From Candidatus Binataceae bacterium (GTDB taxonomy: Bacteria; Desulfobacterota; Binatia; Binatales; Binataceae): DNA of 64,000 nt. The position numbers and the translations under genes are program-made. The notes under the pieces were generated by a model that was not told where the DNA came from, searched no databases, and worked only from the letters and a program-made list of their open reading frames with translations. Where the stretch lies: NCBI GenBank assembly GCA_963798375.1, contig CAWCTG010000007.1, positions 7,851 to 71,850 on the forward strand. Reading direction: 5' to 3'. This document shows positions 3,021 to 56,646 of the stretch, piece after piece (position 1 is the first letter of the stretch; each line of letters begins with the position of its first letter).

Positions 3021-3845
3021 ATGCGCACGGTAGTCCTCTATGCGCGTTCGCCGGCCTGGCGCGCGGTCGTCGAGCGCGCTGACGAATTGATGGCGTCGCC
3101 GGATTTTCGGGTGCTCAAATCTGAAGCGCGCACGCTGGCTGGATTCCTCGACGTCCCGGGCGCCGGACCCGCGTTCTTAAAGCGCGTCGAGGTTTCCTCA
3201 TGGAGCCGCGGCGTTTACGCGCGATTGCGCGGGTCTCGCGCCGCGCGATCGCTCGCCGGCGCCGCGATGCTCCGGGCGCAGGGCTTCGCGCATCCGGAGC
3301 CGCTGGCGGCCATGGATTTGTACCAAGCTGGCGCGATTCGAGCCTCTTATCTCGTCAGCCGCGCGCTCATCAACGCCGACTCTCTGAGCCGCTTCATGCT
3401 CGGCCCCGGAGAAATCAAGGGACGCAACGTGCATCGCCGCAAACAGATCTCCGATGCGGTGGCCGCGCAAATCCGGCGCCTGCACGAGTCCGGTCTTTAC
3501 ACTCGCGATCTGCAAGAGACCAACATCATGGTGGAGGAAAACGAGTCCGGCGGCTTCAAGGTGTACTTTATCGATCTCGAGGATTTCCGCCGCGCCGCCA
3601 ACGTCTCGCGGGATCGCCGAATTCTGAACCTGGTGCATCTCGATCGCAGCATCGGGCGATTTCTCTGCCGCGCGGCGCGGCTCGATTTCCTTTACTCTTA
3701 CCTGGGCCATCGGCCGGACCGCGCGGCCGCGCGCCGGATGGTCGCCGAAGTCAGAGCGGCGCGCGAGTCGATCGATCGCCGCAAGCGCGGCGGCGTCCCG
3801 GCCACGGAGCGGGTCGTGGAGCCGCTCGCTGGGGGAACTGAGTAG
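3021..3845 (+). CDS. lipopolysaccharide kinase (Kdo/WaaP/InaA) family protein
   Basis: The central region ...HESGLYTRDLQETNIMVEE...GFKVYFIDLEDF resembles the Kdo/WaaP kinase catalytic core. Confidence 0.6.
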   Translation: MRTVVLYARSPAWRAVVERADELMASPDFRVLKSEARTLAGFLDVPGAGPAFLKRVEVSSWSRGVYARLRGSRAARSLAGAAMLRAQGFAHPEPLAAMDLYQAGAIRASYLVSRALINADSLSRFMLGPGEIKGRNVHRRKQISDAVAAQIRRLHESGLYTRDLQETNIMVEENESGGFKVYFIDLEDFRRAANVSRDRRILNLVHLDRSIGRFLCRAARLDFLYSYLGHRPDRAAARRMVAEVRAARESIDRRKRGGVPATERVVEPLAGGTE

Positions 3846-4567
3846 TGGCTTTTTCGACCCGCATTCGCGAGTACGACCATCACACCGAGCAGGTTCACGC
3901 CGCCGGCGGAAGCTGGGTGCGCGACGTGATGCTCGGGCTGAACGACGGACTGGTCGCCTCGTTCGCGGTTACCTCCGGCGTCGCGGGCGCGTTCGTCACT
4001 GGCAACGCGGCGATGATGGCGGGACTGTCGGAAATGCTCGGCGGCGCGGTAGCGATGGGGCTCGCGGCGTTCATCTCCGCGCGCTCGCAAATCGAGTTTT
4101 ATCAAAGCGAGATAGAACGCGAGCGCGACGAAATCCGCCGATGGCCCGAACGCGAGCGCGAAGAGATCAGCACCATCTATCGAAAAAAAGGGTTCGCCGG
4201 TCCGCTGCTCGATCAGATCGTCGCGCACATCACGTCGGACACCGAGCGATGGAGCAACGTGATGATGCGCGAGGAGCTGGGCTTCAACGAAGAATCCTTC
4301 GACAGCCCCATTCGCTCCGCCTTCGCCGTCGGCTTGTCATATCTGTCAGGCGCGGCAGTGCCCGTCTGGGCGTATATTTTCTTCGAGCCGAGCCGCGCGC
4401 TGATCGTGTCGGCCATCTCGACAGTCGCGGCGCTGTTCGCAGCCGGCGCGCTGAAGACGATCATCACCAGCCGTTCGTGGTGGCGCAGCGGACTCGAAAG
4501 CATGTTGATTGGAATAGCAGCCGCGGGCGTGACTTACGCCGCGGGCCGCATGTTTGCCGAGCGCTGA
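3845..4567 (+). CDS. VIT1/CCC1 family Fe/Mn transporter
   Basis: GTG start overlaps the upstream stop by 1 nt. The LGLNDGLVASFAVTSGVAGA motif and C-terminal TM helices are typical of the VIT family. Confidence 0.8.
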   Translation: MAFSTRIREYDHHTEQVHAAGGSWVRDVMLGLNDGLVASFAVTSGVAGAFVTGNAAMMAGLSEMLGGAVAMGLAAFISARSQIEFYQSEIERERDEIRRWPEREREEISTIYRKKGFAGPLLDQIVAHITSDTERWSNVMMREELGFNEESFDSPIRSAFAVGLSYLSGAAVPVWAYIFFEPSRALIVSAISTVAALFAAGALKTIITSRSWWRSGLESMLIGIAAAGVTYAAGRMFAER

Positions 4568-4587
4568 AGCTCCGCGCCGCGCGCGCG

Positions 4588-6187: not shown

Positions 6188-8866
<2,679 letters not shown>

Positions 8867-9097
8867 CTTATATGAGCGATTTTCGCGGCAAGTTTGAGAT
8901 TAGGTTCTCGACGAGCCACCGCGATGCGATCTGACCGGTGACACAGTGAAACAACTCCGCAAGTTTAGCTGGAAATCATCTTATCCCGAAATCGGCCGGG
9001 TAGGCAGGGGGCGCTGCGCCAGTTTGCTGGAATCCAAAAACGCTGGAGATTCAGGCGGGATTCGACGGGGACTCTGTGGGATGTAGTGGGGGTCGCG

Positions 9098-9113
9098 TTG
9101 CGTTGCAACGCAA
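9098..9113. promoter_or_regulatory. perfect 16-bp palindrome TTGCGTTGCAACGCAA (operator-like), overlapping a putative -35
   Basis: Read directly from the sequence. It lies about 30 nt upstream of the small ORF at 9144. A TTGCAA...N17...TAAATG promoter-like spacing overlaps it. Confidence 0.4.
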
Positions 9114-9143
9114 GCTGTCGCACAATAAATGGTATTGACCACT

Positions 9144-9389
9144 ATGGCGAAAACGACAAAATACAGGGCCGTGGCCCGTCAAAACGGTAACGCCGGCGTT
9201 ATCGTCAAATTGAGCCGGAGCGAGATTCTCAGTTCGCTTGAAAAGGGAGCGCGCGATCGCGTTGGCATGTCCGCACGGCTCATGCTGCGCAGATATCGGC
9301 AGGGGAGATTGCCCGACCCCACCAGCGTAGGCGACCTGATTGCGCTCTCCAATTTGCTTCGCAAGAATGATCCGATTCTTGCCGAGTAA
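9144..9389 (+). CDS. hypothetical small protein (81 aa), first gene of a lower-GC two-gene cassette
   Basis: ORF in a roughly 53% GC patch. No recognisable family. Start taken at MAKTTKYR, because the first ATG (9129) falls inside the putative -10. Confidence 0.45.
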   Translation: MAKTTKYRAVARQNGNAGVIVKLSRSEILSSLEKGARDRVGMSARLMLRRYRQGRLPDPTSVGDLIALSNLLRKNDPILAE

Positions 9390-9434
9390 TTTCCGATCGC
9401 CAGCCTCGACAATCTGCTAGCCGATATCAGGGAT

Positions 9435-10016
9435 TTGACGCGCTCATGCAGGCGCGGCGACAAGGACTCGCCCCAGGCGTTCTGCGACTTGTTGAATCTT
9501 CTTTTGGCGAACACCGTGATGGCGGTCGGGGCCAGTCTACGTCTTCAACAAGGAGAGCGTCGAAACAACTATATTGTCGCAGGGCGGCTTCTGGCCCCTG
9601 TCCAGCTGAGAGATGGGAAATTTCTCCGCGTCTATTATGGTCTCGCTATCCATGGCACTCCTGAAGGACCGACACTCAGGGTAATTAATTCCGGGTTCAA
9701 ATATCAGATTGATTTGGACGGCAAGCGCTGGGTTTTTCGTTACGACTACGACCGATTTCCCCGGCGCCCGTATCCGCCAACGCATTTTCACATACGCGGT
9801 GATTTGAAAGAAAACTGCCTGCCCGTTGGGGAAGCGCTGCAAACTATCCATTTCCCAGCTACCCGCGTTTCGTTAGAGGCAGTAATCAGGCTCTTGATCG
9901 ATCAATTTGGAGTATCCCCGGCAACACTGCGCGGTACATGGCGAAAGCTTTTGGCCAAGAGCGAGGCGGACTTCCTGGACATCGCGCATCGCGGACTTTC
10001 GGGGCCTAAACGCTGA
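9435..10016 (+). CDS. hypothetical protein (about 165-193 aa; start ambiguous, TTG at 9435 or ATG at 9519)
   Basis: Clean ORF at about 50% GC, 45 nt after the previous gene. No recognisable domain. Contains ...RYDYDRFPRRPYPPTHFHIRGD... Confidence 0.5.
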   Translation: MTRSCRRGDKDSPQAFCDLLNLLLANTVMAVGASLRLQQGERRNNYIVAGRLLAPVQLRDGKFLRVYYGLAIHGTPEGPTLRVINSGFKYQIDLDGKRWVFRYDYDRFPRRPYPPTHFHIRGDLKENCLPVGEALQTIHFPATRVSLEAVIRLLIDQFGVSPATLRGTWRKLLAKSEADFLDIAHRGLSGPKR

Positions 10017-10070
10017 GCGATTTCAATTCAGGGCACTTGCCCACCCACACCGGTCTTAAGAGCGGGTTTG

Positions 10071-10943
10071 CTAGCGCTCGATGCGGACCGCGGATTCGAC
10101 CTGCGGGCCGAGAAATCTGCGGCCGACGCGGACAAAACGATCAGGGGTCTCGGTCACGAAGAAACTCTGAACCCCTTTGCCGGTGCGCCGGGCGAGCTTG
10201 AGAATCCGCAGCCGATCGCGCACGTCGGCCGCGGTCGCGGTCGCGGAGTCCACGATCTTCACGCGTGGCCCAAGAATTCGCGCGAACATATCGCGCAGCA
10301 GCGGGTAATGCGTGCATCCCAGCAGCAGAGTGTCGATGCCGCTCTGCTTGAGACTCTCGAGGTAGTGGGCGACGGTCAATTCCGCGACCGCATTGTCGGT
10401 CCATCCTTCTTCGGCCAGCGGCACCAGCAGCGGGCATGCGCGCGTGTAGATTTCGGAGCGCGGGCTGAGCCGCTGGATCGCGCGCGTGTAAGCGCCGGAC
10501 GCGATCGTTGCCTCGGTGCCGATCACGCCTATTTTGCCGTTGCGCGAGGCCTTGGCGGCGGCGCGCGCGCCCGGCTCGATCACGCCGATCACGGGGATCA
10601 TCGTGTCCGACGCGATTGCGTCGAGCGCGACCGCGCTGGACGTGTTGCAGGCGACCACCAGCATTTTGATTCCCTTGGCGAGCAGGAAGCCGGTGTTCTC
10701 CTTCGAGTAGCGGACGATGACTTCGTTGGATTTCGTGCCGTAGGGGAGCCGCGCCGTGTCGCCGAGGTAGATGAAATCTTCATTGGGCAGCGCCGCGGTC
10801 AGCGCTTTGAGGACGGTGAGTCCGCCGATGCCCGAATCGAACACGCCGATGGGCCGGTCGATCGCCGCGCGCGAGCCGCGAAGAAGCCCGTTGGAAGCCG
10901 CGATCGAATTCGGCCGTGTTGCAGATTTTTTGCGGGTCGGCAT
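10071..10943 (-). CDS. murI: glutamate racemase
   Basis: IGVFDSGIGGLTVL and ...VACNTSS...GCTHYPLL motifs. Confidence 0.9.
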   Translation of the reverse strand: MPTRKKSATRPNSIAASNGLLRGSRAAIDRPIGVFDSGIGGLTVLKALTAALPNEDFIYLGDTARLPYGTKSNEVIVRYSKENTGFLLAKGIKMLVVACNTSSAVALDAIASDTMIPVIGVIEPGARAAAKASRNGKIGVIGTEATIASGAYTRAIQRLSPRSEIYTRACPLLVPLAEEGWTDNAVAELTVAHYLESLKQSGIDTLLLGCTHYPLLRDMFARILGPRVKIVDSATATAADVRDRLRILKLARRTGKGVQSFFVTETPDRFVRVGRRFLGPQVESAVRIER

Positions 10944-10970
10944 TTGAATCCGCCGGCGGCTCGTCCGTGC

Positions 10971-12599
10971 TCAGCCGCGCGCGAGGCGTTCGCCGATTGT
11001 AGCCGGTCGGGAGGGCGCCGCGCCAAAGACGCTTTCATGGACGCTGGCCGCTTCCATGCACAGATAGGCGGGGATCTCCGCGCCCGCTTTTCGGAAACGA
11101 TCGGCAAGCGTGCGGTAAAGACTGAGGCGCAGCGGCGTGAAGGTCCGAAAGCGCCCGTCGGAGGCGAGCACGTCCTCGCCGCACAGCATCGGATCGCCGG
11201 GAAAACGGCTGCGCGCGGCGCCGCGCAACCGCGGCGTCATCCGGAGGCCGCCCATGCTGATGAACGAGATTTGTTGGGGCGCAACTGTGTCCAGCAGCTC
11301 GTCGATCAGCAGCAGGTAATCGCGCTCGGCGCCCGGATATGCGATCAACGGATCGAGATGAAACGCCACGCGGTAGCCGGCGTCGAGGACCGCGCGCGCC
11401 GCCGCGATTCGCGCCGCCGGCGCGGCGGTGAGATGCTCCGAGCTCCGATAGACGGCGTCCGGCGACAAGGTCCACGAGACGAGCACGCGGCCGCGCGGGT
11501 CCATGCCAAGAAGATTTTCAATTTCGTCGGTCTTGGTCTTGAGCTCGAGGGTCAGATTCTCGCGCGAGGCAAAAAAATCGACCAGCTCGCGGCTAATCGA
11601 GGTAAGCGAGTCGAACGCGAGCGAGTCCGCCAGTTCACCGGTGCCGACGCGGAAGCTGCGCCCGCGAGCGTTGGCGATCAGCCGGTCGAGCTCGTCGAAT
11701 GAATCGGTGAAATTCGCATATACCTGGAAGGCGGGATTGTCAGCCAGATATTCCTGCAGAAAGCAGTACGAGCAATCCATCGGGCAGTTCGATGCGAGCG
11801 TGAGCACCAGGTATCCGCAGCAGGCGAAGCTGGGGGAACCCGCATGACACGGCATCAGGAACGGAGTCTTGCGCCGCGCGATCACCATCCGGCGTTTGCC
11901 GGCCCCGAACGGATCGCGCGCGCCCGATGCGGGCCGGGCCGCCTCGCGCGCGTCGGCGACATGCGTGACGGGCACATGGCGCGGAAGCGCGCGCAGGATG
12001 CGAGTCGCCAGCGGATAGCCGGCGCATCCGTGCTCGACAAACACCGCGTCGAGATCAAATTTCACTTTCTTGCCGCCGAGCATTTCAATAATCCTTGTCA
12101 GTCCCGGGCGCGATCGATCGACCGCCTCGAGCAGATGCGCCAGTTCGGCGGCGCTTCGCACCCGAAGCGAAACCGTGAGCTCATCAGAGCCAAGCTCGTT
12201 GGGCAAGACCACCGAAATTCCGCGGGGAAGCTTCAGCGCCGCGACTTCAGAGCGCAGTTGCTCCTGCATTTTCTTAAGGAGAGGGTAGCGAAGCGTTCGA
12301 AGCGCTTCCAGGAGCGCGCTCGCGCGCGACGGCGCGGAGCCGGGACCGCCTGCAATGCGCCTGATCTCGGGGCGGCCGAGAACGCCGGCGACGGTGACGT
12401 GCTCGCGCACGGCGATTTCCTCGAGCGTCTCGAGCGCGGTCATCAGTTGACCGGTCCGGATGCGGATGACGCGCGCGATATCGAGCATCGCGGCGCGCGA
12501 CGCCGGGTCCATCGCGAGCCATCGCGCAAGATGGCTCGGCGGCAGCCGTCGCTCGGCCGCGAGCATCCGAATCTGCGCGTCGATCTCGTCAGCATTCAT
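10971..12599 (-). CDS. radical SAM protein, spore photoproduct lyase (SplB)-like DNA repair photolyase homologue with about 170-aa N-terminal extension
   Basis: CPMDCSYCFLQ is the CxxxCxxC radical-SAM cluster motif. KVKFDLDAVFVEHGCAGYPLA aligns with the SplB N-terminus. The ATG at 12599 overlaps the GT2 stop (ATGA). An alternative internal start at 12083 has a good AAGGA Shine-Dalgarno. Confidence 0.7.
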   Translation of the reverse strand: MNADEIDAQIRMLAAERRLPPSHLARWLAMDPASRAAMLDIARVIRIRTGQLMTALETLEEIAVREHVTVAGVLGRPEIRRIAGGPGSAPSRASALLEALRTLRYPLLKKMQEQLRSEVAALKLPRGISVVLPNELGSDELTVSLRVRSAAELAHLLEAVDRSRPGLTRIIEMLGGKKVKFDLDAVFVEHGCAGYPLATRILRALPRHVPVTHVADAREAARPASGARDPFGAGKRRMVIARRKTPFLMPCHAGSPSFACCGYLVLTLASNCPMDCSYCFLQEYLADNPAFQVYANFTDSFDELDRLIANARGRSFRVGTGELADSLAFDSLTSISRELVDFFASRENLTLELKTKTDEIENLLGMDPRGRVLVSWTLSPDAVYRSSEHLTAAPAARIAAARAVLDAGYRVAFHLDPLIAYPGAERDYLLLIDELLDTVAPQQISFISMGGLRMTPRLRGAARSRFPGDPMLCGEDVLASDGRFRTFTPLRLSLYRTLADRFRKAGAEIPAYLCMEAASVHESVFGAAPSRPATIGERLARG

Positions 12600-13525
12600 G
12601 TGCAATTTCGCGAAGCATGGATCGCATCGACGCGAAGCATGGATCGCATCGATTCAACCGCGCATCCGATTTCAGGAGCCGCACGCGTATCCCAGCCTCG
12701 CGCCTGGTCAGCGATCCATTCGTACAGTCGCGCCTCATCGATTCTGGCTCGTCGCCGAAGGCCGCGCGCGTAGATGCGGCATTTTTCGGCGAGTACTTCG
12801 ACGACCGAGGTTCGCCGCGCCGGAGAAAGCCTGTTGTCCGCGAGCAATTTTGCAAGCGCGAGAATGCGGAAGCGATCGAGGGCAGGAGTGGTGGCCGAGG
12901 TTTGATCGGGATGCCCGCCGCGGCGTGTCACCAGCGGCTCGTCGAGCAGGCCGGCTTCATGGTCGATAAGAATTCGCAGCCACAGATCGTAGTCTTCGGC
13001 GGCGGTCATGTGCTCGTCGAAGCCGCCGGATGAGCGGAAAAGTTCGGCGCGTATCATCACCGACGACATACCGATCAGGCAGGTGCGGAGCGAGTCGATG
13101 AAAATATCGCCGGCGCGCTTGCGATGGCGGTGACCGGGATTCACGCGCCGCCCGTTGCGGATCCAGATTTCGCCGGTTTGCGAGATCGCGCAGCCGGGGT
13201 TGTCGCGCATGAACGCGAGCTGGCGTTCGAGCTTGGTTGGCGACCAGAGATCGTCGGAATCCAGGAATGCGATCAGCGGCGCGCGCGCCAGGGCGACGCC
13301 GCGGTTTCGCGCCGCGGCGGGACCGCGATGATCGATGCGCTCGATTCGGATCGTTTCGGACATCCGCCTCAAACGTTCGTTTTCGCTGGTTCCGTCGGTC
13401 GAGCCGTCGTCGATGACGATCAACTCGAACGCCGGGGCCGATTGGGCGAGCACGGAAGCGATCGCCTCGAGCAGCATCGCGCATCGATTGTAAGCCGGGA
13501 TAATTACCGAAACTTCGGGAGTCAT
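12596..13525 (-). CDS. glycosyltransferase family 2
   Basis: VSVIIPAYN...LIVIDDGSTDGT N-terminal GT-A signature and a DxD-like motif. Confidence 0.85.
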   Translation of the reverse strand: MTPEVSVIIPAYNRCAMLLEAIASVLAQSAPAFELIVIDDGSTDGTSENERLRRMSETIRIERIDHRGPAAARNRGVALARAPLIAFLDSDDLWSPTKLERQLAFMRDNPGCAISQTGEIWIRNGRRVNPGHRHRKRAGDIFIDSLRTCLIGMSSVMIRAELFRSSGGFDEHMTAAEDYDLWLRILIDHEAGLLDEPLVTRRGGHPDQTSATTPALDRFRILALAKLLADNRLSPARRTSVVEVLAEKCRIYARGLRRRARIDEARLYEWIADQARGWDTRAAPEIGCAVESMRSMLRVDAIHASRNCT

Positions 13526-14121
13526 CGCGCCTCCGCGCGCTTGACGGTGTCGGAGCGATCGAATCCGAGGATTCGGCGGCGCAGCTCATCGATTCCCTCG
13601 CCGGAAGTTGCCGAGCATAAAATCGGGCGCATGCGCATCGAGTCGAAACGTTTGAGCGCGTCGGCGCGCTCGGAGCGGCGCAATTTATCGCACTTGGTCG
13701 CGACCGGAATCACTTCGATGCCGCGATCCGCGGCCATCGCCGCCAGATCGAGTTCGTCGTGCTGAGGACCGCGGCGGCAATCGATCAGAATCGCGATGGC
13801 GGCGAGATTGACGCGCCCGTGGATGTATTCGTGCAGCATGGAAGCGATTTTGGCCGCTTCCTGGTGGCTCATTTTCGCGTAGCCGAAGCCGGGCAGGTCG
13901 CACAGCGCGAGCGTGTCGCCGACCGCGAAGAAGTTGAGGCATCGCGTGCGTCCGGGGGTTTTGCTGGTGCGCGCGAGACCCTTAACTCCGGCGAGCGCGT
14001 TGAGCAACGAACTCTTGCCCACGTTGGAGCGGCCGGCGAGCGCGACCTCGGCGCGCTTCCATCGCGGGCATCCGTCGAGAGCGAATGCAGATGCTACGAA
14101 CTCTGCGGTGAAGCGAATCAT
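13522..14121 (-). CDS. engB: ribosome biogenesis GTPase YsxC/EngB
   Basis: GRSNVGKSSLLNAL (G1) and DLPGFGYA (G3) motifs. 4-nt overlap with the GT2 start. Confidence 0.85.
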   Translation of the reverse strand: MIRFTAEFVASAFALDGCPRWKRAEVALAGRSNVGKSSLLNALAGVKGLARTSKTPGRTRCLNFFAVGDTLALCDLPGFGYAKMSHQEAAKIASMLHEYIHGRVNLAAIAILIDCRRGPQHDELDLAAMAADRGIEVIPVATKCDKLRRSERADALKRFDSMRMRPILCSATSGEGIDELRRRILGFDRSDTVKRAEAR

Positions 14122-49807: not shown

Positions 49808-50279
49808 TGTTCAGCCTCTTCTCCTCCCCCGAGCGAAGAGCTTGAGCATCAAAAATTGGCCGCTAGAAATCGGCGAACCCCAGCAGCATCCCTTATCCGA
49901 CGCCTCATTCCGTCTAATGATAATCGACGAAGAAAGAAACTTAGTGAGAACGCTGACTCATTGCAAGGGAAAAGTCATCGAATAAATTCGTGGCCGCGAG
50001 CCTCGGATTGAACCAAGTTTGCCAGACGATAACGCCGAAATCGGCGAGACGGTATCGCAAACGCGCCCGGGGCGTCGGCGAACGATGCGCTCAAAGGCGC
50101 GCAGCGCCCTTGTTATCGATACGAGCGGACGGTCTGCTATAGTTGAATTGTCAGAGAACGCAAGCGCGGCGCTCGCCGGAAAGCCGGTCGATATCTGGGA
50201 TAATTATTTCGGGGCGCGAGCGCGCCCTGGCAAGGGCGGCGCGCATTCGGCAACATTGGGGACTATTGAATCGGTGGAA

Positions 50280-51440
50280 ATGGATCAGGCACGAAAAGAT
50301 CGGAAGACACGGCAGATAACGATCGGTGGCGCCAAGGTCGGCGGCGATGCGCCCGTGGTGGTGCAATCGATGTGCGCGACGCGAACGATCGACGTCGATC
50401 AAACAGTCGCCCAGGCCCATCAGCTGGCGAACGCAGGCGCGGGAATCGTCCGGATCGCGATGGACAGCGAGAAAGAAATCCCGGCGCTCAAGGAAATCCG
50501 CGCGCAGACCAAGGGAATCGTGCTGTCGGTCGATTTGCAGGAGAACTACAGGATCGCCGGCCGGGTTGCGCCGCACGTTGACAAGATTCGCTACAACCCG
50601 GGCCATCTGCACCATATGGAAAAGTCGAAGACGATCGAGCAGAAGGTGAAATCGCTGGTCGATGTGGCCCGCGACAACAACCTCGCGATTCGCATCGGCG
50701 TGAACTGCGGCTCGGTCGCGCCCGCGTTTCTGGACAAGTATCCGGGCGATCAACTGGCCGCGATCGTCGAGTCGGCGGCGTACCATTGCGACCTGATGGA
50801 CGAGCTCGGCTTCACGCGCTTCGTCGTGTCGCTCAAGGATTCCGATCCCAACAAGGTGATGGACGCGAATCGGCGCTTCTCGAAGCGCCGCCCGGACGTG
50901 CCGATCCATCTTGGCGTCACGGAGGCGGGGTTGCCGCCCGACGGAATCATCAAGACCCGGATAGCATTCGAAAAGCTGCTCGCGCAGGGCATCGGCGATA
51001 CGATCCGCGTCTCGCTCACGCTGCCCAACGAGCGCAAGCACGAGGAAGTGATCGTCGGGCACAAAATTATCCAGGACGTCGCGGCGGGCAGGTTCATCTC
51101 GGTGCCCGATTTCGGCGCCGGGCTCAACATCATCTCGTGCCCGTCGTGCTCGCGGGTCGAGAACGAGAAGTTCGTCGAGCTGGCGCAGCAGGTCAAGGAA
51201 CTCACGACTTACGCCCGGATGCACAAGATCACGATTGCGGTGATGGGATGTCGAGTTAACGGGCCGGGCGAGACCGATGACGCCGATCTTGGGTTATGGT
51301 GCGGTCCGACCACGGTGAATCTCAAGAAGAAAGATAAGAAGATAGGTTATTTCGGCTACGAAGAAGTGCTGCCCAAGCTGCGCGCCGAGCTGGATCGGTT
51401 GATTGCCGAGCGCTCCGCCACTGCTGCCGCTACGAATTAG
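50280..51440 (+). CDS. ispG: 4-hydroxy-3-methylbut-2-en-1-yl diphosphate synthase (flavodoxin), extended form
   Basis: [24 protein letters not shown]-terminal TIM-barrel motif and the C-terminal [12 protein letters not shown]...GCRVNGPGE [4Fe-4S] motif. The ORF is open back to a TTG at 50019. Start chosen at ATG 50280. Confidence 0.85.
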
Positions 51441-51745
51441 GCGAGACGCGCTTGCGCGCGAGATCCTTCGGCTGTACTCAGCATGACACAAAAAACGCGC
51501 GCGCGGGCTCCTTCTTGATCAATCCCTTCTAACAGGGCGAAGCCCGCATCTTCTCTAACCGTCGGGTGCAGGGGTCGCCCCTGGCCGTTGGCACGGCTGG
51601 CCAGTAATAGGAGACCGCGCGCCCGTGGTTCTTCCATTGCGTAGTCACGAAAAGATGCGCTGCGCAGATTTTCGTGTCTTCTTAATACTGGGTGCAGAGC
51701 CTGTCCTGAGCGAAGCCGAAGGAGGTCACCCCTGCCCAAGGAGGT

Positions 51746-51768
51746 GCGGAACCCAGGGTGGGTTCCGC
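51746..51768 (+). other. stable hairpin GCGGAACCCA-ggg-TGGGTTCCGC at the high-GC/low-GC boundary
   Basis: 10-bp perfect stem. Followed by ATTTAATT and an abrupt fall in GC content. Confidence 0.4.
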
Positions 51769-51812
51769 ATTTAATTAAGTTCTCCCGTCGAACACTCCGG
51801 CGTCCGGCGTTG

Positions 51813-51843
51813 TGCAAAGGGAAGTATGCTGGTGTTGACTACC
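51813..51843. repeat. terminal inverted repeat (left)
   Basis: Reverse-complement match to 54166-54196 (about 29 of 31 positions). Confidence 0.65.
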
Positions 51844-51858
51844 AGCCCGTGAAGTGCG

Positions 51859-52140
51859 ATGATTCCGGCGATGAGGAACCAGACGAACCGCCTACACGTG
51901 CTGTTCGGATTGCTGGTCGATTTGGCGCGTTTGAGCTGCTTCTTTTTTCCGCCGTCTGGCGAACCGCTGCTTCTGGTTGCGGTAGTGGGGACTGGCCTTT
52001 TCCTCGTATCGCTTACACTTGTGGCAGTAGAAGAAGAGAATCTTTTGGGCGTATCCACTGCTCATGTCGCCAGTGTAGCGCGTTGTCAGCGTGCCGAAAA
52101 GCGCAGTACGATGCTCCAAGAGAACAACCCTCATGGCTGA
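51859..52140 (+). CDS. hypothetical small membrane protein (passenger ORF A)
   Basis: Hydrophobic stretch. The stop overlaps the start of the next gene (ATGGCTGA). The antisense 58-aa basic ORF at 51892-52065 is an alternative. Confidence 0.3.
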   Translation: MIPAMRNQTNRLHVLFGLLVDLARLSCFFFPPSGEPLLLVAVVGTGLFLVSLTLVAVEEENLLGVSTAHVASVARCQRAEKRSTMLQENNPHG

Positions 52141-52789
52141 CTCGAAATTTCGTGAATCTCTGCGTGATTTCCTTACGCAATACCCGTTGTGGACTGTGGT
52201 TGATCAGTTCCTCGATTCTAAATGGGGGAAAAGATTTCTCGCTCTTCTTGGGGGTGCTGTGTTGACCGGCATTGGGTGGATAGCTTCTCTCTTTACCGCC
52301 CTGAGCAGCGGTCTGAAATATGGACTTTTCGGTGCATTCGGCGCCTCTCTCTTTGCAGCCTTAGTCATCTATTTGACGAAAGAGAAAGAAATGACCATCA
52401 CAGCTAATACCAATATACATCGGACTATTACGCCTGAACAACGACAACTTTTTGCAGCTATGGTAAAGCGTTTAAGCCTACAAGATAAATCAGTTCATAT
52501 TAAAGGCTCAAAGCATGACGGGGAAATGCAAGATTATTGGCATACACTGGTCGAGCTATTCCGGGCGAACGGTATGGTCACGGGTGGTCAAATCGAAGAT
52601 TCTCCGTCCTATGATCCGCGTGGCTTAGTCCTTGTCGTGCAAGAACCGCAAGTTGATCGTCTCATAGGACATGCGAAAACCATTTTTGAATTGCTCCGCT
52701 CGGCGCAGATTCCTTTTGAGCTTGGCTACGATGGAAGGCCGAGACAGCAAGAAGGTTGGTGTTATTTATATGTAGGTCGTCGAAGCTAG
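52133..52789 (+). CDS. hypothetical protein with two N-terminal TM helices and a C-terminal soluble domain (passenger ORF B)
   Basis: 218-aa ORF in low-GC DNA with atypical codon usage. No recognisable family. Confidence 0.5.
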   Translation: MADSKFRESLRDFLTQYPLWTVVDQFLDSKWGKRFLALLGGAVLTGIGWIASLFTALSSGLKYGLFGAFGASLFAALVIYLTKEKEMTITANTNIHRTITPEQRQLFAAMVKRLSLQDKSVHIKGSKHDGEMQDYWHTLVELFRANGMVTGGQIEDSPSYDPRGLVLVVQEPQVDRLIGHAKTIFELLRSAQIPFELGYDGRPRQQEGWCYLYVGRRS

Positions 52790-53124
52790 TCGCCACGAAA
52801 CACATCACACAAATTTATTTTCTTATGAGCATAGCAATTATGAATCGTCTTTATACACGGCCCAAAGTACGCATCAAGCGCCCCGATACTGAGAAGCATC
52901 TCCGCGCGTTGGTCTTTCGCTCTCGCATAATCACTGATTGCTTGCAGTCGAAGCGGATTGCTACTAAAGTGACCTTCAAGCGCGGATTTCTCAGCGTACA
53001 GGCACAGAGCTTCGATACATATTATATTATCCTTCGTTGTGTCGCAGTCGAGCGCTCGCAAGTCCGGCGGAGCTATCGCTATCGTGCTGACCACTATAAG
53101 AGCCGTAAGCATGAGTCGCTTCAT
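52786..53124 (-). CDS. small secreted cysteine-rich protein (passenger ORF C)
   Basis: Signal peptide. Six Cys in about 90 mature residues. Convergent 4-nt overlap with ORF B. Confidence 0.5.
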   Translation of the reverse strand: MKRLMLTALIVVSTIAIAPPDLRALDCDTTKDNIICIEALCLYAEKSALEGHFSSNPLRLQAISDYARAKDQRAEMLLSIGALDAYFGPCIKTIHNCYAHKKINLCDVFRGD

Positions 53125-53211
53125 AGGTATCCTAAATCCTTGTACGTTTTCTTGTGCGCTGTTCGCTGGCGTCGTTCTCAGATAGCTGAGACATTCGCCA
53201 GTGTTCGTGTC

Positions 53212-54138
53212 TCAGCACCCTGCTATCGCTTTGCCGAATATATCGGCTTCTTTTCGATTGTTAAAACGGAATTGAAACTCATTCAGGTACAGCGGCAGAT
53301 GTTTCCTGCTAACATTGTGGTACGTCCCGATGATTCCGCGCTTGAGCAGCGCCCAAAACGAATCAATCGACTGAGTATGAACCTTGCCACGTACATATTC
53401 GCCAGCACTATGGCGGCCGCTCTCATGCCGGAATTTGTCACTCAGCTTTTGATTGCCGTATGCTTCATCGGTAGCAACCAATTCCACCCTGTCCGAAACA
53501 ACCCTGCGAACGAATCCATCGAGCGTCGGCGTATCGGTAGTCTCGATCATTTTGCAGACCACGTTGCCCTTACGGGAAATCGCGCCGATGACTGGCTGCT
53601 TGCCGGTCGTGCCTTTGGTGTTTGGGCCGATGCGCTTGCTGCGATGTTTGTTCTTTTCCTTTCCACCAATATACGTCTCATCAACTTCTACGATGCCCAT
53701 CAGTTGACGGAAATCGGGGTCGAACATACCGGCTCGCAGACGCATACACATATACCAAGCCGAGCGATACGAGCCGGTTCCAAGCAAACGATGAATCTGC
53801 AATGCGCTGATGCCCTTCTTGGAAGTCAGCATGAGCAGCAGAGTCTTAAACCACGAACGCAACGGCAGTTTGGTTTCCTCGAAGATCGTTCCGGTCTTGA
53901 GCGAGAAGCGATAAGGCGAGCGATTATCCTTGCCGCATTTCTTGCACTGCCAATGCCACGGACGCGCCGTGCTCTCATAAACGTGATCGTTATTGCAACG
54001 CGGGCATTTCGGGCCAGCGGGCCAGCGGCGCGAGAGCAGATACGTCCAGCACGATTGCTCGTCCGGGAACATCTGCTCGAAGTCGGAGAGCGTCATTTGT
54101 CGCGTAAATTTCGGTTCGTTTTCTTTCCAATCCTTCAT
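53212..54138 (-). CDS. IS1595 family transposase (ISXO2-like DDE domain with N-terminal transposase zinc-ribbon)
   Basis: ...WPAGPKCPRCNNDHVY...WQCKKCGK Zn ribbon, and an ISXO2-like region (...GIVEVDETYIGGKEKNKH...VATDEAYGNQKL...). Confidence 0.85.
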   Translation of the reverse strand: MKDWKENEPKFTRQMTLSDFEQMFPDEQSCWTYLLSRRWPAGPKCPRCNNDHVYESTARPWHWQCKKCGKDNRSPYRFSLKTGTIFEETKLPLRSWFKTLLLMLTSKKGISALQIHRLLGTGSYRSAWYMCMRLRAGMFDPDFRQLMGIVEVDETYIGGKEKNKHRSKRIGPNTKGTTGKQPVIGAISRKGNVVCKMIETTDTPTLDGFVRRVVSDRVELVATDEAYGNQKLSDKFRHESGRHSAGEYVRGKVHTQSIDSFWALLKRGIIGTYHNVSRKHLPLYLNEFQFRFNNRKEADIFGKAIAGC

Positions 54139-54165
54139 GATCCATATATTAGCAAAAAGCAGCGT

Positions 54166-54196
54166 GGTAGTCAACACCAGCATACTTCCCTATGCA
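54166..54196. repeat. terminal inverted repeat (right)
   Basis: GGTAGTCAACACCAGCATACTTCCCTATGCA is the reverse complement of the left inverted repeat. It is immediately followed by the hairpin GCTCTCC-ctgtga-GGAGAGC (54199-54218). Confidence 0.65.
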
Positions 54197-54228
54197 AAGC
54201 TCTCCCTGTGAGGAGAGCCTGGCAAGAA

Positions 54229-54345
54229 TCAGATCTTCTGATTCGTTTTGCGCCAGTCGGCGAGGAAGCGCTCAAGCCCGAGATCCGTCAGCGGATCATG
54301 CAGCGTCTGTTTGAGCACCGCGAACGGCACCGTCGCGATATCGGC
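54229..54345. repeat. degenerate direct copy A of the 3' end of the tal gene (about 92% identity to 55445-55561)
   Basis: Alignable base-by-base to the last ~115 nt of tal, including the stop codon. Confidence 0.75.
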
Positions 54346-54390
54346 AGCGATCCCGTCAAGCCGCTATTCGTGTTTCGTTCTCCTGAACTA

Positions 54391-54414
54391 AAAACGTTTC
54401 ACGTGAAACGTTTT
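54391..54414. repeat. 24-bp perfect palindrome AAAACGTTTCACGTGAAACGTTTT
   Basis: Read directly from the sequence. CACGTG core. Lies between tal-3' copies A and B. Confidence 0.7.
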
Positions 54415-54544
54415 CCTGAAAACCTTAGCAGCACAGCACCATTTTCGACCGCTTTTGAAAAAAGTGACTGCCATTGCACGTGCCTGCTTAACATTGGGCG
54501 CAGGGGCCAGCCCACCCACCTGAGTCAGAAGCAAGGACCGGAAG

Positions 54545-54649
54545 TTAGATCTTCTGATTCGTCTTGCGCCAGTCGGCCAGGAAGCGCTCGAGCCCGAGAT
54601 CCGTCAGCGGATGATGCAGCGTCTGTTTGAGCGCTGCGAACGGCACTGT
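54545..54649. repeat. degenerate direct copy B of the 3' end of the tal gene
   Basis: About 105 nt alignable to 55445-55550, with divergence after ...GAACGGCACTGT. Confidence 0.75.
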
Positions 54650-54692
54650 AGCGACCTGCGCATCTCTCTAACCGGGCACAACGCCGGCACCG

Positions 54693-55226
54693 CTATCTTT
54701 TCGGATTCGGCTTCAGCTTCGACGCGTCGTCCAGTCCCATCCCCTCCAGCGACATCTCGAACCTGGCCTTCATCTGCGCGTCCTCAGCAGTTAAGTTCCG
54801 GGTGTAGGTGCAGAACTCGAGCTGAATGCCGTTGGGATCCTTAAAGTAGATCGACTTCGCCCATTCATGATCGACCACCTCGGTGACCTTCACACCCTTG
54901 GCGATCAGTTCGCGGCGCTTGTCCTCGAGCGCGGCCTCGGTGCCGGCCTCGAAAGCGAAGTGATAGAAGCCGCTCGGCACGCCGAGACCGCGGTTGATGC
55001 CCGCGTCGTATTCGGCGGGGATGCCCGGGACTCCGCGCGCCTCCATGAACGCGATCAACTGGTCGCGCCCGGTATCGAAGAAGATGTGACGGATCTGGCC
55101 GCCTTCGTGGATCGGAATGATGTCGGATCGGACCGGCTTGAAGCCAAGGACGTTCATATAGAAGTCCCGGGTCTTGTCCAAATCCAAGGTCGACAGGCCG
55201 ATGTGCGAGAAACCTTTGCTAGCCAT
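54693..55226 (-). CDS. VOC family protein (glyoxalase/bleomycin-resistance/dioxygenase fold)
   Basis: FSHIGLSTLDLDKTRDFYMNVLGF and a second beta-alpha-beta-beta-beta module. Lies between tal-3' copy B and intact tal. Confidence 0.8.
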   Translation of the reverse strand: MASKGFSHIGLSTLDLDKTRDFYMNVLGFKPVRSDIIPIHEGGQIRHIFFDTGRDQLIAFMEARGVPGIPAEYDAGINRGLGVPSGFYHFAFEAGTEAALEDKRRELIAKGVKVTEVVDHEWAKSIYFKDPNGIQLEFCTYTRNLTAEDAQMKARFEMSLEGMGLDDASKLKPNPKR

Positions 55227-55444
55227 ACCAGTCACCTCTTATCCGGAATTTCCATTGTCAATCCTGAACTGGATTAGCACCGGCATCGGGCGTTTCGCAA
55301 ATGCGAAGTTCGAGCCCGGTTTTTAGGTCCCAAGGGCTTTCGAGCGCGTCGCAGAACGGACCAGTTCTCCCTCGTTCTTAAAGCACCCTGAACTGACGCT
55401 CTTCCAACCGAGCGCCGGCCGCCGCCACAGATTCCCGAGATTGA

Positions 55445-56095
55445 TCAGATCTTCTGGTTGGTCTTGCGCCAGTCGGCCAGGAAGCGCTCGAGCCCGAGAT
55501 CCGTCAGCGGATGATGCAGCGTCTGCTTGAGCACCGCGAACGGCACTGTCGCGATATCGGCGCCGACCGCGGCCGCACGCAGCAGATGCGTCGTGTTGCG
55601 CACCGACGCGACCAGTACCTCCGCCGGATAGTCGTAGTTCGACAGTATCTGCACCATATCCTCGACGATCTGCATTCCGTCCTGTCCGATGTCATCGAGC
55701 CGTCCGATAAACGGCGACAGAAACGAGGCGCCGACTTTGGCAGCCGCGAGCGCCTGGAGCGGGGTGAAGATCAGCGTGACGTTGACGCGGATGCCGCGTT
55801 TGGCGAGCGCGCGGGTCGCCTTGAGGCCTTCGACGATCATTGGGCATTTCACGACGATGTTCTTGTGGAGCTTGGCGAGCTTCTCGCCCTCCTCGATCAT
55901 CGCAGAAGCTTCAGTTGCGACGACTTCAGCGCTGATCGGCCCGTCGACGATTTCGCAAATCTCTCGCAGCACGTCGTGATACGGGCGGCCGGTTTTCGCC
56001 ATCAAGGATGGATTGGTGGTGACTCCGTCGATGAGCCCCCAACTGGCGGCCTCGCGAATCTCGGCGACTTCTGCGGTATCGATAAAATATTTCAT
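55445..56095 (-). CDS. tal: transaldolase / fructose-6-phosphate aldolase family (short form)
   Basis: [13 protein letters not shown]...GVTTNPSL...VKCPM match the Fsa/TalC-like class-I aldolase family (about 216 aa). Confidence 0.85.
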
Positions 56096-56646
56096 CGGGT
56101 CGATGCCTCGCGTTTGGACGATTGCGGCCTCAGCAGGTCCGCTCGTGCAAGAGTAACACGAAATGGCGACTTGAGTCCCGCCAGCATCTCGGAAATCGAC
56201 GCGTTGAGTTTGGGATGGATCAGCGCGGGCGCCAGCTCGCTCATGGGGGCGAGCACAAAGCGGCGCTCATGAAGGCGCGGATGCGGAACCTTGAGGATTC
56301 GCGTATCGATGGTTTCCTTGTTAAAGAACAGCAAATCAAGGTCGATGATTCGCGGCCGGTACTTGCCGCGGGATTGCTTGCGTCCCTTGACGCGCTTGCG
56401 GCCCATGATTCGCTCGAGCGCGAGCAGGCGGCGCATCAGAACTTCGGCGGAGAGCTCAGTCTCGACTTCGACGACGCCGTTTAGAAACGCGCCCTTGAGA
56501 TCGCCCATCGGTTCGGTCTCGTAGATCGAGGATTGGCGCACGATCCTCGTGTCCGGGATCGCAGCGATCCGCTGAATCGCCTCGCGAAAATTGGCGGCTC
56601 GATCGCCTAGGTTACTGCCTATTCCGATGAAAGCCCGATTGGGCAT
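56092..56646 (-). CDS. folK: 2-amino-4-hydroxy-6-hydroxymethyldihydropteridine diphosphokinase
   Basis: [11 protein letters not shown]...ETEPMG...IDLDLL HPPK motifs. ATGA overlap with tal. Confidence 0.85.

Follow-up and report, generated by a model that had tools for sequence, protein, structure and literature searches.

Three copies of the transaldolase gene 3′ end in an uncultured Binataceae bacterium: probable displaced ends from serial insertion

How did the 3′ end of a transaldolase gene (tal) come to be present three times in a row at one locus? The question is raised by a 64-kb stretch of DNA (the window, meaning the whole stretch that was analysed) from an uncultured member of the Binatia, family Binataceae. 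An intact tal is followed there by two orphan copies of its last ~110–120 nt, lying between tal and the core gene ispG. The intact end was designated T, and the orphans, in the order in which they follow it, B and A. Copies A and B are probably displaced tal ends, left by two serial insertions into the 3′ end of the gene. A preliminary description of this DNA had called them scars of serial site-specific integration; displaced ends and at least two separate events were supported by the flanks, the bias toward synonymous changes, the compact arrangement in relatives and the match to the icd system of Escherichia coli, but the involvement of an integrase is conjectural.

The intact tal (55445..56095, minus strand) encodes 216 aa of the transaldolase/fructose-6-phosphate aldolase family (Pfam TAL_FSA, E = 1.9e-59). 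It stands in the gene order actA-dapL-folK-tal, which is syntenic across the Binataceae and common to the window and its nearest relatives. Copy T, the last ~117 nt of this working gene with its stop codon (55445..55561, minus strand), was the repeat reference and was delimited by repeat search, alignment and BLASTN. The repeat search returned a single three-copy direct family of 128 nt (54228-54355, 54544-54671 and 55444-55571), the only sizeable repeat in the whole window. Copy B (54545..54654, minus strand) comprises ~110 nt with the stop codon TAA and 2 amino-acid changes, and matched the intact end at 94.4% over 108 nt (BLASTN, 54547-54654). Copy A (54229..54345, minus strand) comprises ~117 nt with the stop codon TGA and 1 amino-acid change, and matched at 93.2% over 118 nt (54228-54345). 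The two same-orientation copies that had been reported were thus confirmed, at identities above the 92% (A) and 90% (B) given for them; they had been placed "upstream", in the sense of lower plus-strand coordinates, and in the sense of tal they lie downstream.

All three copies are on the tal strand, in frame, and keep a stop codon (TGA, TAA and TGA in T, B and A), and the likeness to tal ends exactly at that codon in each. T and B share an exact 60-nt run. A 60-nt core with at most 3 mismatches occurred at only three places in the 64 kb and gave 0 matches in 100 shuffles. The copies also differ from each other at fixed diagnostic sites. The T-to-B unit measures 900 nt and the B-to-A unit 316 nt. 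At their 5′ edges the orphans leave tal at different points, as had been noted, B at −110 and A at −117. These edges are ~7 nt apart, a closeness that we estimate at ~3% by coincidence if edges fell at random along the 651-nt gene.

Read in the sense of tal, end T is followed by 209 nt, a VOC/glyoxalase gene, ~37–38 nt, copy B, a 199-nt spacer, copy A, a 30-nt hairpin flank, an IS1595-family composite transposon, ~370 nt with REP (repetitive extragenic palindromic)-like repeats inside, and then ispG (50019..51440, plus strand; Pfam GcpE, E = 1e-100). The last is the far border of the variable region, and it is convergent with the minus-strand tal.

For comparison, loci and contigs were fetched and given L-numbers; in total, 169 tal loci, drawn from GTDB genomes and from JGI metagenomes, were tested. 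The nearest tal genes in GTDB genomes were labelled Candidatus Binataceae, Candidatus Binatus or "uncultured delta proteobacterium". Contigs of the same population, from separate NCBI metagenome and Logan assemblies of different samples, encoded an identical Tal protein. The order tal-VOC-B was found in contigs L082, L083, L085 and L086 and the order VOC-B in L088, L089 and L091, at 98.5–100% identity. Copy A was also present in L088, L089 and L090, and three contigs span A through to ispG. At least five independent metagenome assemblies of one population thus place B after the VOC gene, and three contain A. Because at least five independent assemblies show the arrangement, the copies are not an assembly artefact. 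No tal-end copy was found at unrelated loci in the window or in the 169 tal loci. Neither of the two outcomes that the preliminary description had named as refuting it, assembly duplication and repeats at many unrelated loci, was therefore seen. Among these loci, extra tal-end-like sequences occurred only in this population and in L017. The suggested integration hotspot at tal is thus not a general one; it applies to this lineage and possibly to L017.

The flanks of the copies carry much of the argument. The sequences downstream of T, B and A are mutually unrelated. The 45 nt joined to copy B (54500..54544, minus strand) are a native-type tal downstream flank: they matched the tal-ispG spacer of the sister species L120 at 83.7% over 43 nt, filling almost the whole intergenic gap there, and the tal of L120 is 92% identical at the DNA level. 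The hairpin flank of copy A (54199..54228, minus strand; GGCTCTCCTCACAGGGAGAGC) is a native-type tal terminator. Copy A plus 29 nt of this flank aligned with the tal end and terminator hairpin of L010 and L125, and the same type of hairpin also follows tal in L001, L008, L013 and L125. The DNA between the tal stop codon and the VOC gene (55236..55444, minus strand) consists of two parts. Its first 136 nt after T (55309-55444) had no match elsewhere; the 73 nt 5′ of the VOC gene (55236-55308) were 82% identical to L102 and L127, travelling with that gene.

The substitution pattern points the same way. Over the last 108 nt, T, B and A vary at 12 sites, 10 of them synonymous (nine third codon positions plus TGA/TAA); B differs from T at 7 sites (6 synonymous) and A from T at 8 (7 synonymous). 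For unselected mutation of the tal end, 70–76% of the changes are expected to be non-synonymous, which gives a binomial probability of ~2e-4, by our own calculation, for at most two non-synonymous sites among 12. Together with their present decay, the flanks and this pattern suggest that copies A and B are former working tal ends, each from its own context.

This decay was visible among the haplotypes of the population. Copy B has a 16-nt deletion in L086, and copy A in L088-L090 has a 1-nt insertion and has lost its last ~23 nt by 3′ truncation. The orphan copies are therefore not maintained, as the indels and truncations in some haplotypes show. Diagnostic variants also move between copies: in L088, copy A has the B-type bases at −91 and −89; in L083, two such bases are missing from copy B; and in L084, L086 and L087, T has a B-type base at −91. 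This indicated gene conversion between copies, in which the working tal also takes part.

The interval between tal and ispG is a variable region in the Binataceae, from ~40 bp (L117) to more than 10 kb. The gap is ~40–230 bp in L010, L013, L014, L117, L120, L122 and L136. In relatives such as L010, L014, L117, L120 and L136, gaps of ~40–110 bp with a single tal end represent the empty target site. The gap is 0.7–0.9 kb in L001, L004 and L016, with an AAA-kinase-like gene or another small open reading frame (ORF), and ~2.8–6 kb in L009, L011, L012, L017 and L018, with assorted genes in L009, L011, L017 and L018. In L003 and L005-L008, ispG lies more than 10 kb away or is absent from the locus.

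From these observations we infer the following order of events and mode of recombination. DNA would have been inserted twice into the last ~110–120 nt of tal. Each insert would have carried its own tal 3′ end and stop codon, and because of this tal would have stayed intact and its old end would have been pushed downstream as an orphan without function. Copy A, with the terminator hairpin next to ispG, would probably be the original tal end of this lineage. The first insert would have brought B, the 45 nt from the tal-ispG spacer of another lineage and ~150 nt of AT-richer DNA; the second would have brought T, the 136 nt of unique DNA, the VOC gene and 37 nt. The orphans are now decaying, and gene conversion passes sequence between them and between each of them and T; two IS1595-family transposons landed later. 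The AT-richer segment (54346..54499, minus strand; GC ~0.5), for which no relatives were detected, may be what is left of the element inserted first.

Within this serial-insertion history, our tentative choice of mechanism, on a rough estimate somewhat below an even prospect, is a site-specific event whose core lies near −110 to −120 and whose recombinase has since been lost or is encoded elsewhere; homology-driven routes are possible but doubtful. Direct in-frame repeats that include the tal 3′ end, beside an intact tal, are what an integrase-borne element in a gene 3′ end would leave. The 900- and 316-nt units, bounded by repeats and without a recombinase, have the structure of cis-mobilizable elements (CIMEs); they might be decayed elements of this type, on the pattern of e14 at icd. 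The junction of an excision circle would then read ...GCGCAGGTCGC, followed by the tal end and TCAATCTCGGGAATC, and the empty site would read tal followed directly by CTTCCGGTCCTTGC. A site-specific step is favoured by the edges 7 nt apart, by nearby mosaic breakpoints, by the AT-richer remnant and by repeats in L017 that behave like att sites.

The L017 repeats are three units of ~55 nt that resemble the last 46–52 nt of tal (~85%), at 12420-12480 (inverted), 12830-12895 and 13738-13805. Their likeness to each other exceeds their likeness to tal. Between the second and the third, which are spaced 908 nt apart, lies a 199-aa methyltransferase gene (12899-13498). The mosaic tal genes are those of L009, L122 and L123, which were ~85% identical to the window tal over the first 525 nt and 90–95% over the last ~120 nt. 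For these three genes a single change-point was best placed at −122/−123, with log-likelihood ratios of 3.9, 1.9 and 6.3, so that a breakpoint near −122 is suggestive only. The tal of L169 was also listed among the mosaic genes, and L009 and L123 have in common an AAA-kinase-like gene beginning directly at the stop codon of tal.

Several observations weigh against this history or its site-specific part. No integrase, excisionase or other recombinase was found next to tal in ~45 Binataceae lineages (Pfam, and a weak phmmer search). The T-B unit holds only the VOC gene and the B-A unit no gene, and units of 0.9 and 0.3 kb are very small. IMG/VR contained neither a degenerate tal 3′ pattern nor a relative of tal. 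Homologous exchange among the copies is demonstrated in the population. There is no relation between the DNA directly 5′ of A and that directly 5′ of B, where the element-side arms would lie. Gene conversion can by itself enrich synonymous differences, and it blurs the origin of each copy. Of the three copies, T most resembles the tal ends of the nearest relatives (96.6% to L115 and 94.9% to L114; 93.5 and 91.7% for B; 94.0 and 91.5% for A), which is not expected of a freshly imported T, although the gap amounts to only 2–4 nt. Orphan 3′ ends of ispG, left at the same hotspot in L102 and L169, suggest a process less specific to tal, or the need for a second specificity. Finally, the VOC gene at the tal-ispG hotspot may be old and looks vertical rather than imported, because L102 and L127 hold it at the same hotspot at about the divergence of tal.

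Two attempts to extract more from these sequences were abandoned. The motif ATAGCGG, common to the DNA 5′ of A and of B, was rejected as a shared arm, since 659 of 2000 shuffles scored equally well. Choosing the imported copy by its identity to relatives was dropped because the differences of 2–4 nt are blurred by gene conversion.

The VOC gene (54693..55235, minus strand; Pfam Glyoxalase, E = 1.8e-18) had been proposed as the cargo of an insertion. It is indeed the only gene between T and B, but it is not clearly imported, since it lies between tal and ispG in the sister species L102 and L127, both without tal repeats, at 92–94% nucleotide identity, about the same as tal. No VOC-less haplotype was found among ~17 contigs of the population. 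The VOC translation has 180 aa, and the start used by gene callers gives 177 aa. In L102, tal is followed by 410 nt of REP-like repeats, the VOC gene, a response regulator, an Hpt protein, a histidine kinase and ispG; two 68-nt REP-like copies, 92.6% alike (3793-3860 and 4489-4556), directly flank its VOC gene. In L127, a 5.4-kb islet separates tal from the VOC gene. It encodes (6678-11716) a HATPase-like protein, a DDE_Tnp_1 transposase, a DUF488 protein, a 264-aa protein without assignment and a T5orf172/MUG113 protein, and it resembles a small islet of the defence or mobile kind, with no integrase.

The search for a parent element was carried further. Pfam on 20 ORFs downstream of tal, from related or same-population loci, gave PLD nuclease, methyltransferase, AAA kinase, OEP, formyltransferase, MBL-rhodanese, HflX, MFS, DDE transposases, DUF488, T5orf172 and PIN, and no recombinase. 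IntE and PinE of E. coli and an integrase of the L098 island served as phmmer queries against all ORFs of the window and of the Binataceae loci down to a length of 100 aa; no match reached E<=10, a weak result from three queries. The preliminary description had proposed a search of relatives for an intact integrase-bearing element at the tal 3′ end. No such autonomous element (integrative and conjugative element, ICE; integrative and mobilizable element, IME; or prophage) was found at a tal att site in 17 GTDB species representatives, 25 JGI loci, the 169 tal loci or IMG/VR. A literature search found no paper on integration at a transaldolase gene.

The alternative that survives best, possible but rather doubtful, is insertion driven by homology, with no dedicated integrase. 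DNA of related Binataceae with the conserved last ~120 nt of tal and the sequence downstream would have recombined with the resident end in one of three ways, each of which duplicates the anchor: integration of a circularised fragment through one crossover, homologous recombination on one side combined with an illegitimate join, or repair of a break with foreign DNA as the template. The inserts carry chromosomal-type tal flanks of other lineages, as this would require; flank capture does not discriminate between the mechanisms, however, because the integrase-driven e14 shows it too. The exchange by homology within the population, the integrase not found near tal and the separate history of the tal 3′ end in L009, L122 and L123 would all agree with this route. 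So would the orphan ends of ispG, the other flanking core gene. That of L169 (7156-7270) starts ~132 nt before the stop codon and lies 8 nt after an unrelated 892-aa gene, and L102 has two short ispG-end remnants (3657-3694 and 4559-4587). On the other side, two independent events with edges 7 nt apart would be a coincidence at the ~3% estimated above if edges were random, and neither a mechanism that first makes a circle nor an upstream illegitimate join was seen at the tal locus.

Some further observations concern ispG. Matches of L102, on either side of its VOC gene, to window 51446-51508 were considered as duplications of the ispG flank and rejected: they are mostly the REP-like repeat, and only the short ispG-end remnants were left. 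The last codons of ispG vary (window 51405-51440; L088 4080-4100, ...AERSATVN; L102 8896-8915, ...AERSPEVN). Their difference between close relatives indicates that the 3′ end of ispG has also been reshaped at this hotspot.

Serial insertion by a site-specific recombinase or by homology should also be set against a kind of event that has not been described, the insertion of small single-gene cassettes into the last ~50–130 nt of convergent core genes (tal and ispG). Recombination would take place at a mimic of the gene end carried by each unit, either with no recombinase at all or with one encoded at another place in the genome. The VOC unit of 900 nt, the methyltransferase unit of 908 nt in L017 and the orphan ispG ends of L102 and L169 hint at such cassettes, which we nevertheless consider improbable.

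Improbable, too, is a local duplication of the tal 3′ end within the same chromosome, kept similar by gene conversion and without foreign DNA. The visible gene conversion among the copies could explain why the differences are mostly synonymous, and it is T that most resembles the relatives. The copies, however, are not parts of a larger repeated unit; their flanks are unrelated, two of them matching the native tal flanks of other lineages, and the spacers are wholly different (the VOC gene in one, the 199-nt AT-richer segment in the other). On three occasions such a duplication would need to have stopped exactly at the stop codon. A local tandem duplication is thus unlikely, given the separate native-type flanks and the three ends exactly at a stop codon. 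A diversity-generating retroelement was rejected as well: adenines make up less than half of the differing sites (T/B 3/7; T/A 2/8, with B or A as template), and no reverse-transcriptase-like gene was seen in the region.

Very little speaks for sites of integron cassettes (attC sites, including clusters of attC sites lacking an integron integrase, CALIN) or for a dispersed family of REP-like elements or miniature inverted-repeat transposable elements (MITEs). The units of ~110–125 nt, ~92% alike, do flank single genes in the same orientation, and a spacing of ~900 nt recurs at tal and between two L017 repeats. However, the units are in-frame tal coding sequence, whose single-strand folding was no better than that of shuffled sequence (z −0.3 to +0.4 on both strands); no R''/R' end motifs were seen on inspection, without a systematic scan, and no integron integrase was found. 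A REP- or MITE-like family is contradicted by exactly three copies in 64 kb and none away from tal in the fetched loci. Mis-joined or duplicated reads, a general risk in metagenome assemblies, are hardly credible here, since T-VOC-B recurs at 98.5–100% in separate NCBI and Logan assemblies of different samples, three contigs span A and ispG, and the copies differ at fixed diagnostic sites.

Serial insertion remains the preferred explanation of the tal ends, and two IS1595-family transposons at the locus are later insertions unrelated to them. The element in the window (51819..54190, minus strand; Pfam DDE_Tnp_IS1595 and Zn_ribbon_IS1595) is a composite transposon with a transposase (53212-54183) and two passenger ORFs. 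Its inverted repeats measure ~26–32 nt (32 nt in the repeat search), and its target duplications of 8 bp each (TGTGCAAA/TATGCAAA) lie at 51811-51818 and 54191-54198. The passenger ORFs (52091-52789, plus strand; 52786-53124, minus strand) had no Pfam match and lie in a low-GC stretch (0.44–0.50). The element had been described as abutting copy A. It does lie 38 nt from the stop codon of A, the 30-nt flank plus the 8-bp target duplication, but this is incidental: it is absent from haplotypes L088 and L089, in which the truncated copy A is joined almost directly to ispG. The tal repeats were also considered as a target-site duplication of this adjacent element and rejected, since the element has its own 8-bp duplications and the repeats persist without it.

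Haplotypes L088 and L089 hold instead a different 2.7-kb IS1595-family transposon (L088 1200-3897), with inverted repeats GGGGATTAGTAGGTTGTGGACACC and an 8-bp duplication TTTTAGTT. It occupies the target site AACTAAAA (plus strand, window 54386..54393) beside the palindrome, where the window has the empty site. This transposon carries, besides its transposase, genes for a 261-aa protein (P0001) and then a PIN-domain protein, which look like a toxin-antitoxin-type pair. It is only ~64% similar to the window element. A homologue of P0001 (P0002, 59% identical) occurs in islands L098 and L099 with a phage-type integrase, PrimPol/DUF3987 and HTH_17 proteins. The tal-end triplication predates both transposons, because the window element is absent from other haplotypes and the window is empty for the second. 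Beyond the palindrome, L083 and L086 carry divergent sequence. It was considered as an intact form of the first element and rejected, being an IS1595-family transposon with its own inverted repeats and 8-bp duplication.

The 24-bp perfect palindrome that had been reported from the spacer was found as described (AAAACGTTTCACGTGAAACGTTTT, 54391-54414) and is unique in the window; the spacer measures 199 nt. The palindrome was absent from IMG/VR and was seen only in contigs of the same population. One possibility is that it is an operator. The target duplication of the second transposon overlaps its first 3 nt. A REP-like dispersed repeat with GTCATCCTGAGCGAAGCCGAAGGATC-type motifs lies at window 51446-51508 and 51700-51723 and at several places in Binataceae loci. 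An antisense ORF of 624 aa (52756-54630, plus strand) crosses the IS1595 transposase and both orphan copies and is almost certainly not a gene. Rfam on 51300-56200 gave nothing near threshold and no structured RNA.

If serial insertion is correct, the 3′ end of a housekeeping gene has served as a landing pad for accessory DNA in the Binatia, a poorly known uncultured soil phylum, and the scars would still be recombinationally active in the population, with gene conversion and later transposon hits. The orphans would form a dated series of insertions, and the junctions at −110 and −117 could be used to seek a recombinase or excision products. For annotation, short pseudogenes resembling tal should be taken as real in these genomes, and so should mosaic 3′ ends of tal. 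The type of scar is already known, and a new mechanistic question would arise only if insertion proved to be recombinase-free or to involve cassettes served in trans.

The closest known system is the e14/phage 21 site at icd. At icd, and on our reading at tal, the gene is kept by a 3′ end borne on the insert and the old end becomes a direct copy downstream. We measured icd/e14/icdC in E. coli K-12 (NC_000913): icd and icdC match over 165 nt at 92.7% identity; of the 12 mismatches, 11 fall on the third position of a codon, 2 amino acids are changed, and the homology ends at the stop codon. The tal copies match over 108–118 nt at 93–94%, with 10 of the 12 variable sites synonymous. However, e14 is ~15 kb long and has its own intE and xisE, whereas the tal units are 0.9 and 0.3 kb, have no recombinase, and have left two orphans rather than one.

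A second comparison is with CIMEs, which keep attL and attR without integration and transfer genes and form accretion arrays through a flanking att site, as in streptococcal elements (PMC5704250). The example reviewed there is the ICESt1/ICESt3-related elements at the 3′ end of fda in Streptococcus thermophilus (PMC5704250). CIMEs and the tal units are alike in being bounded by repeats and devoid of integration genes. For CIMEs, related integrase-bearing ICEs or IMEs with the same att site are known and mobilisation has been shown, whereas no such partner was found for tal. The fda repeats are ~27 bp long, and the tal repeats are longer.

At rhs and cdiA loci, displaced orphan 3′ modules pile up downstream after a new end has recombined in. 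These loci and tal share a variable region between conserved genes, with old 3′ ends downstream. The new ends of rhs and cdiA are different toxins, selected for diversity, whereas the three tal ends encode almost the same peptide; the tal orphans are for this reason best regarded as by-products.

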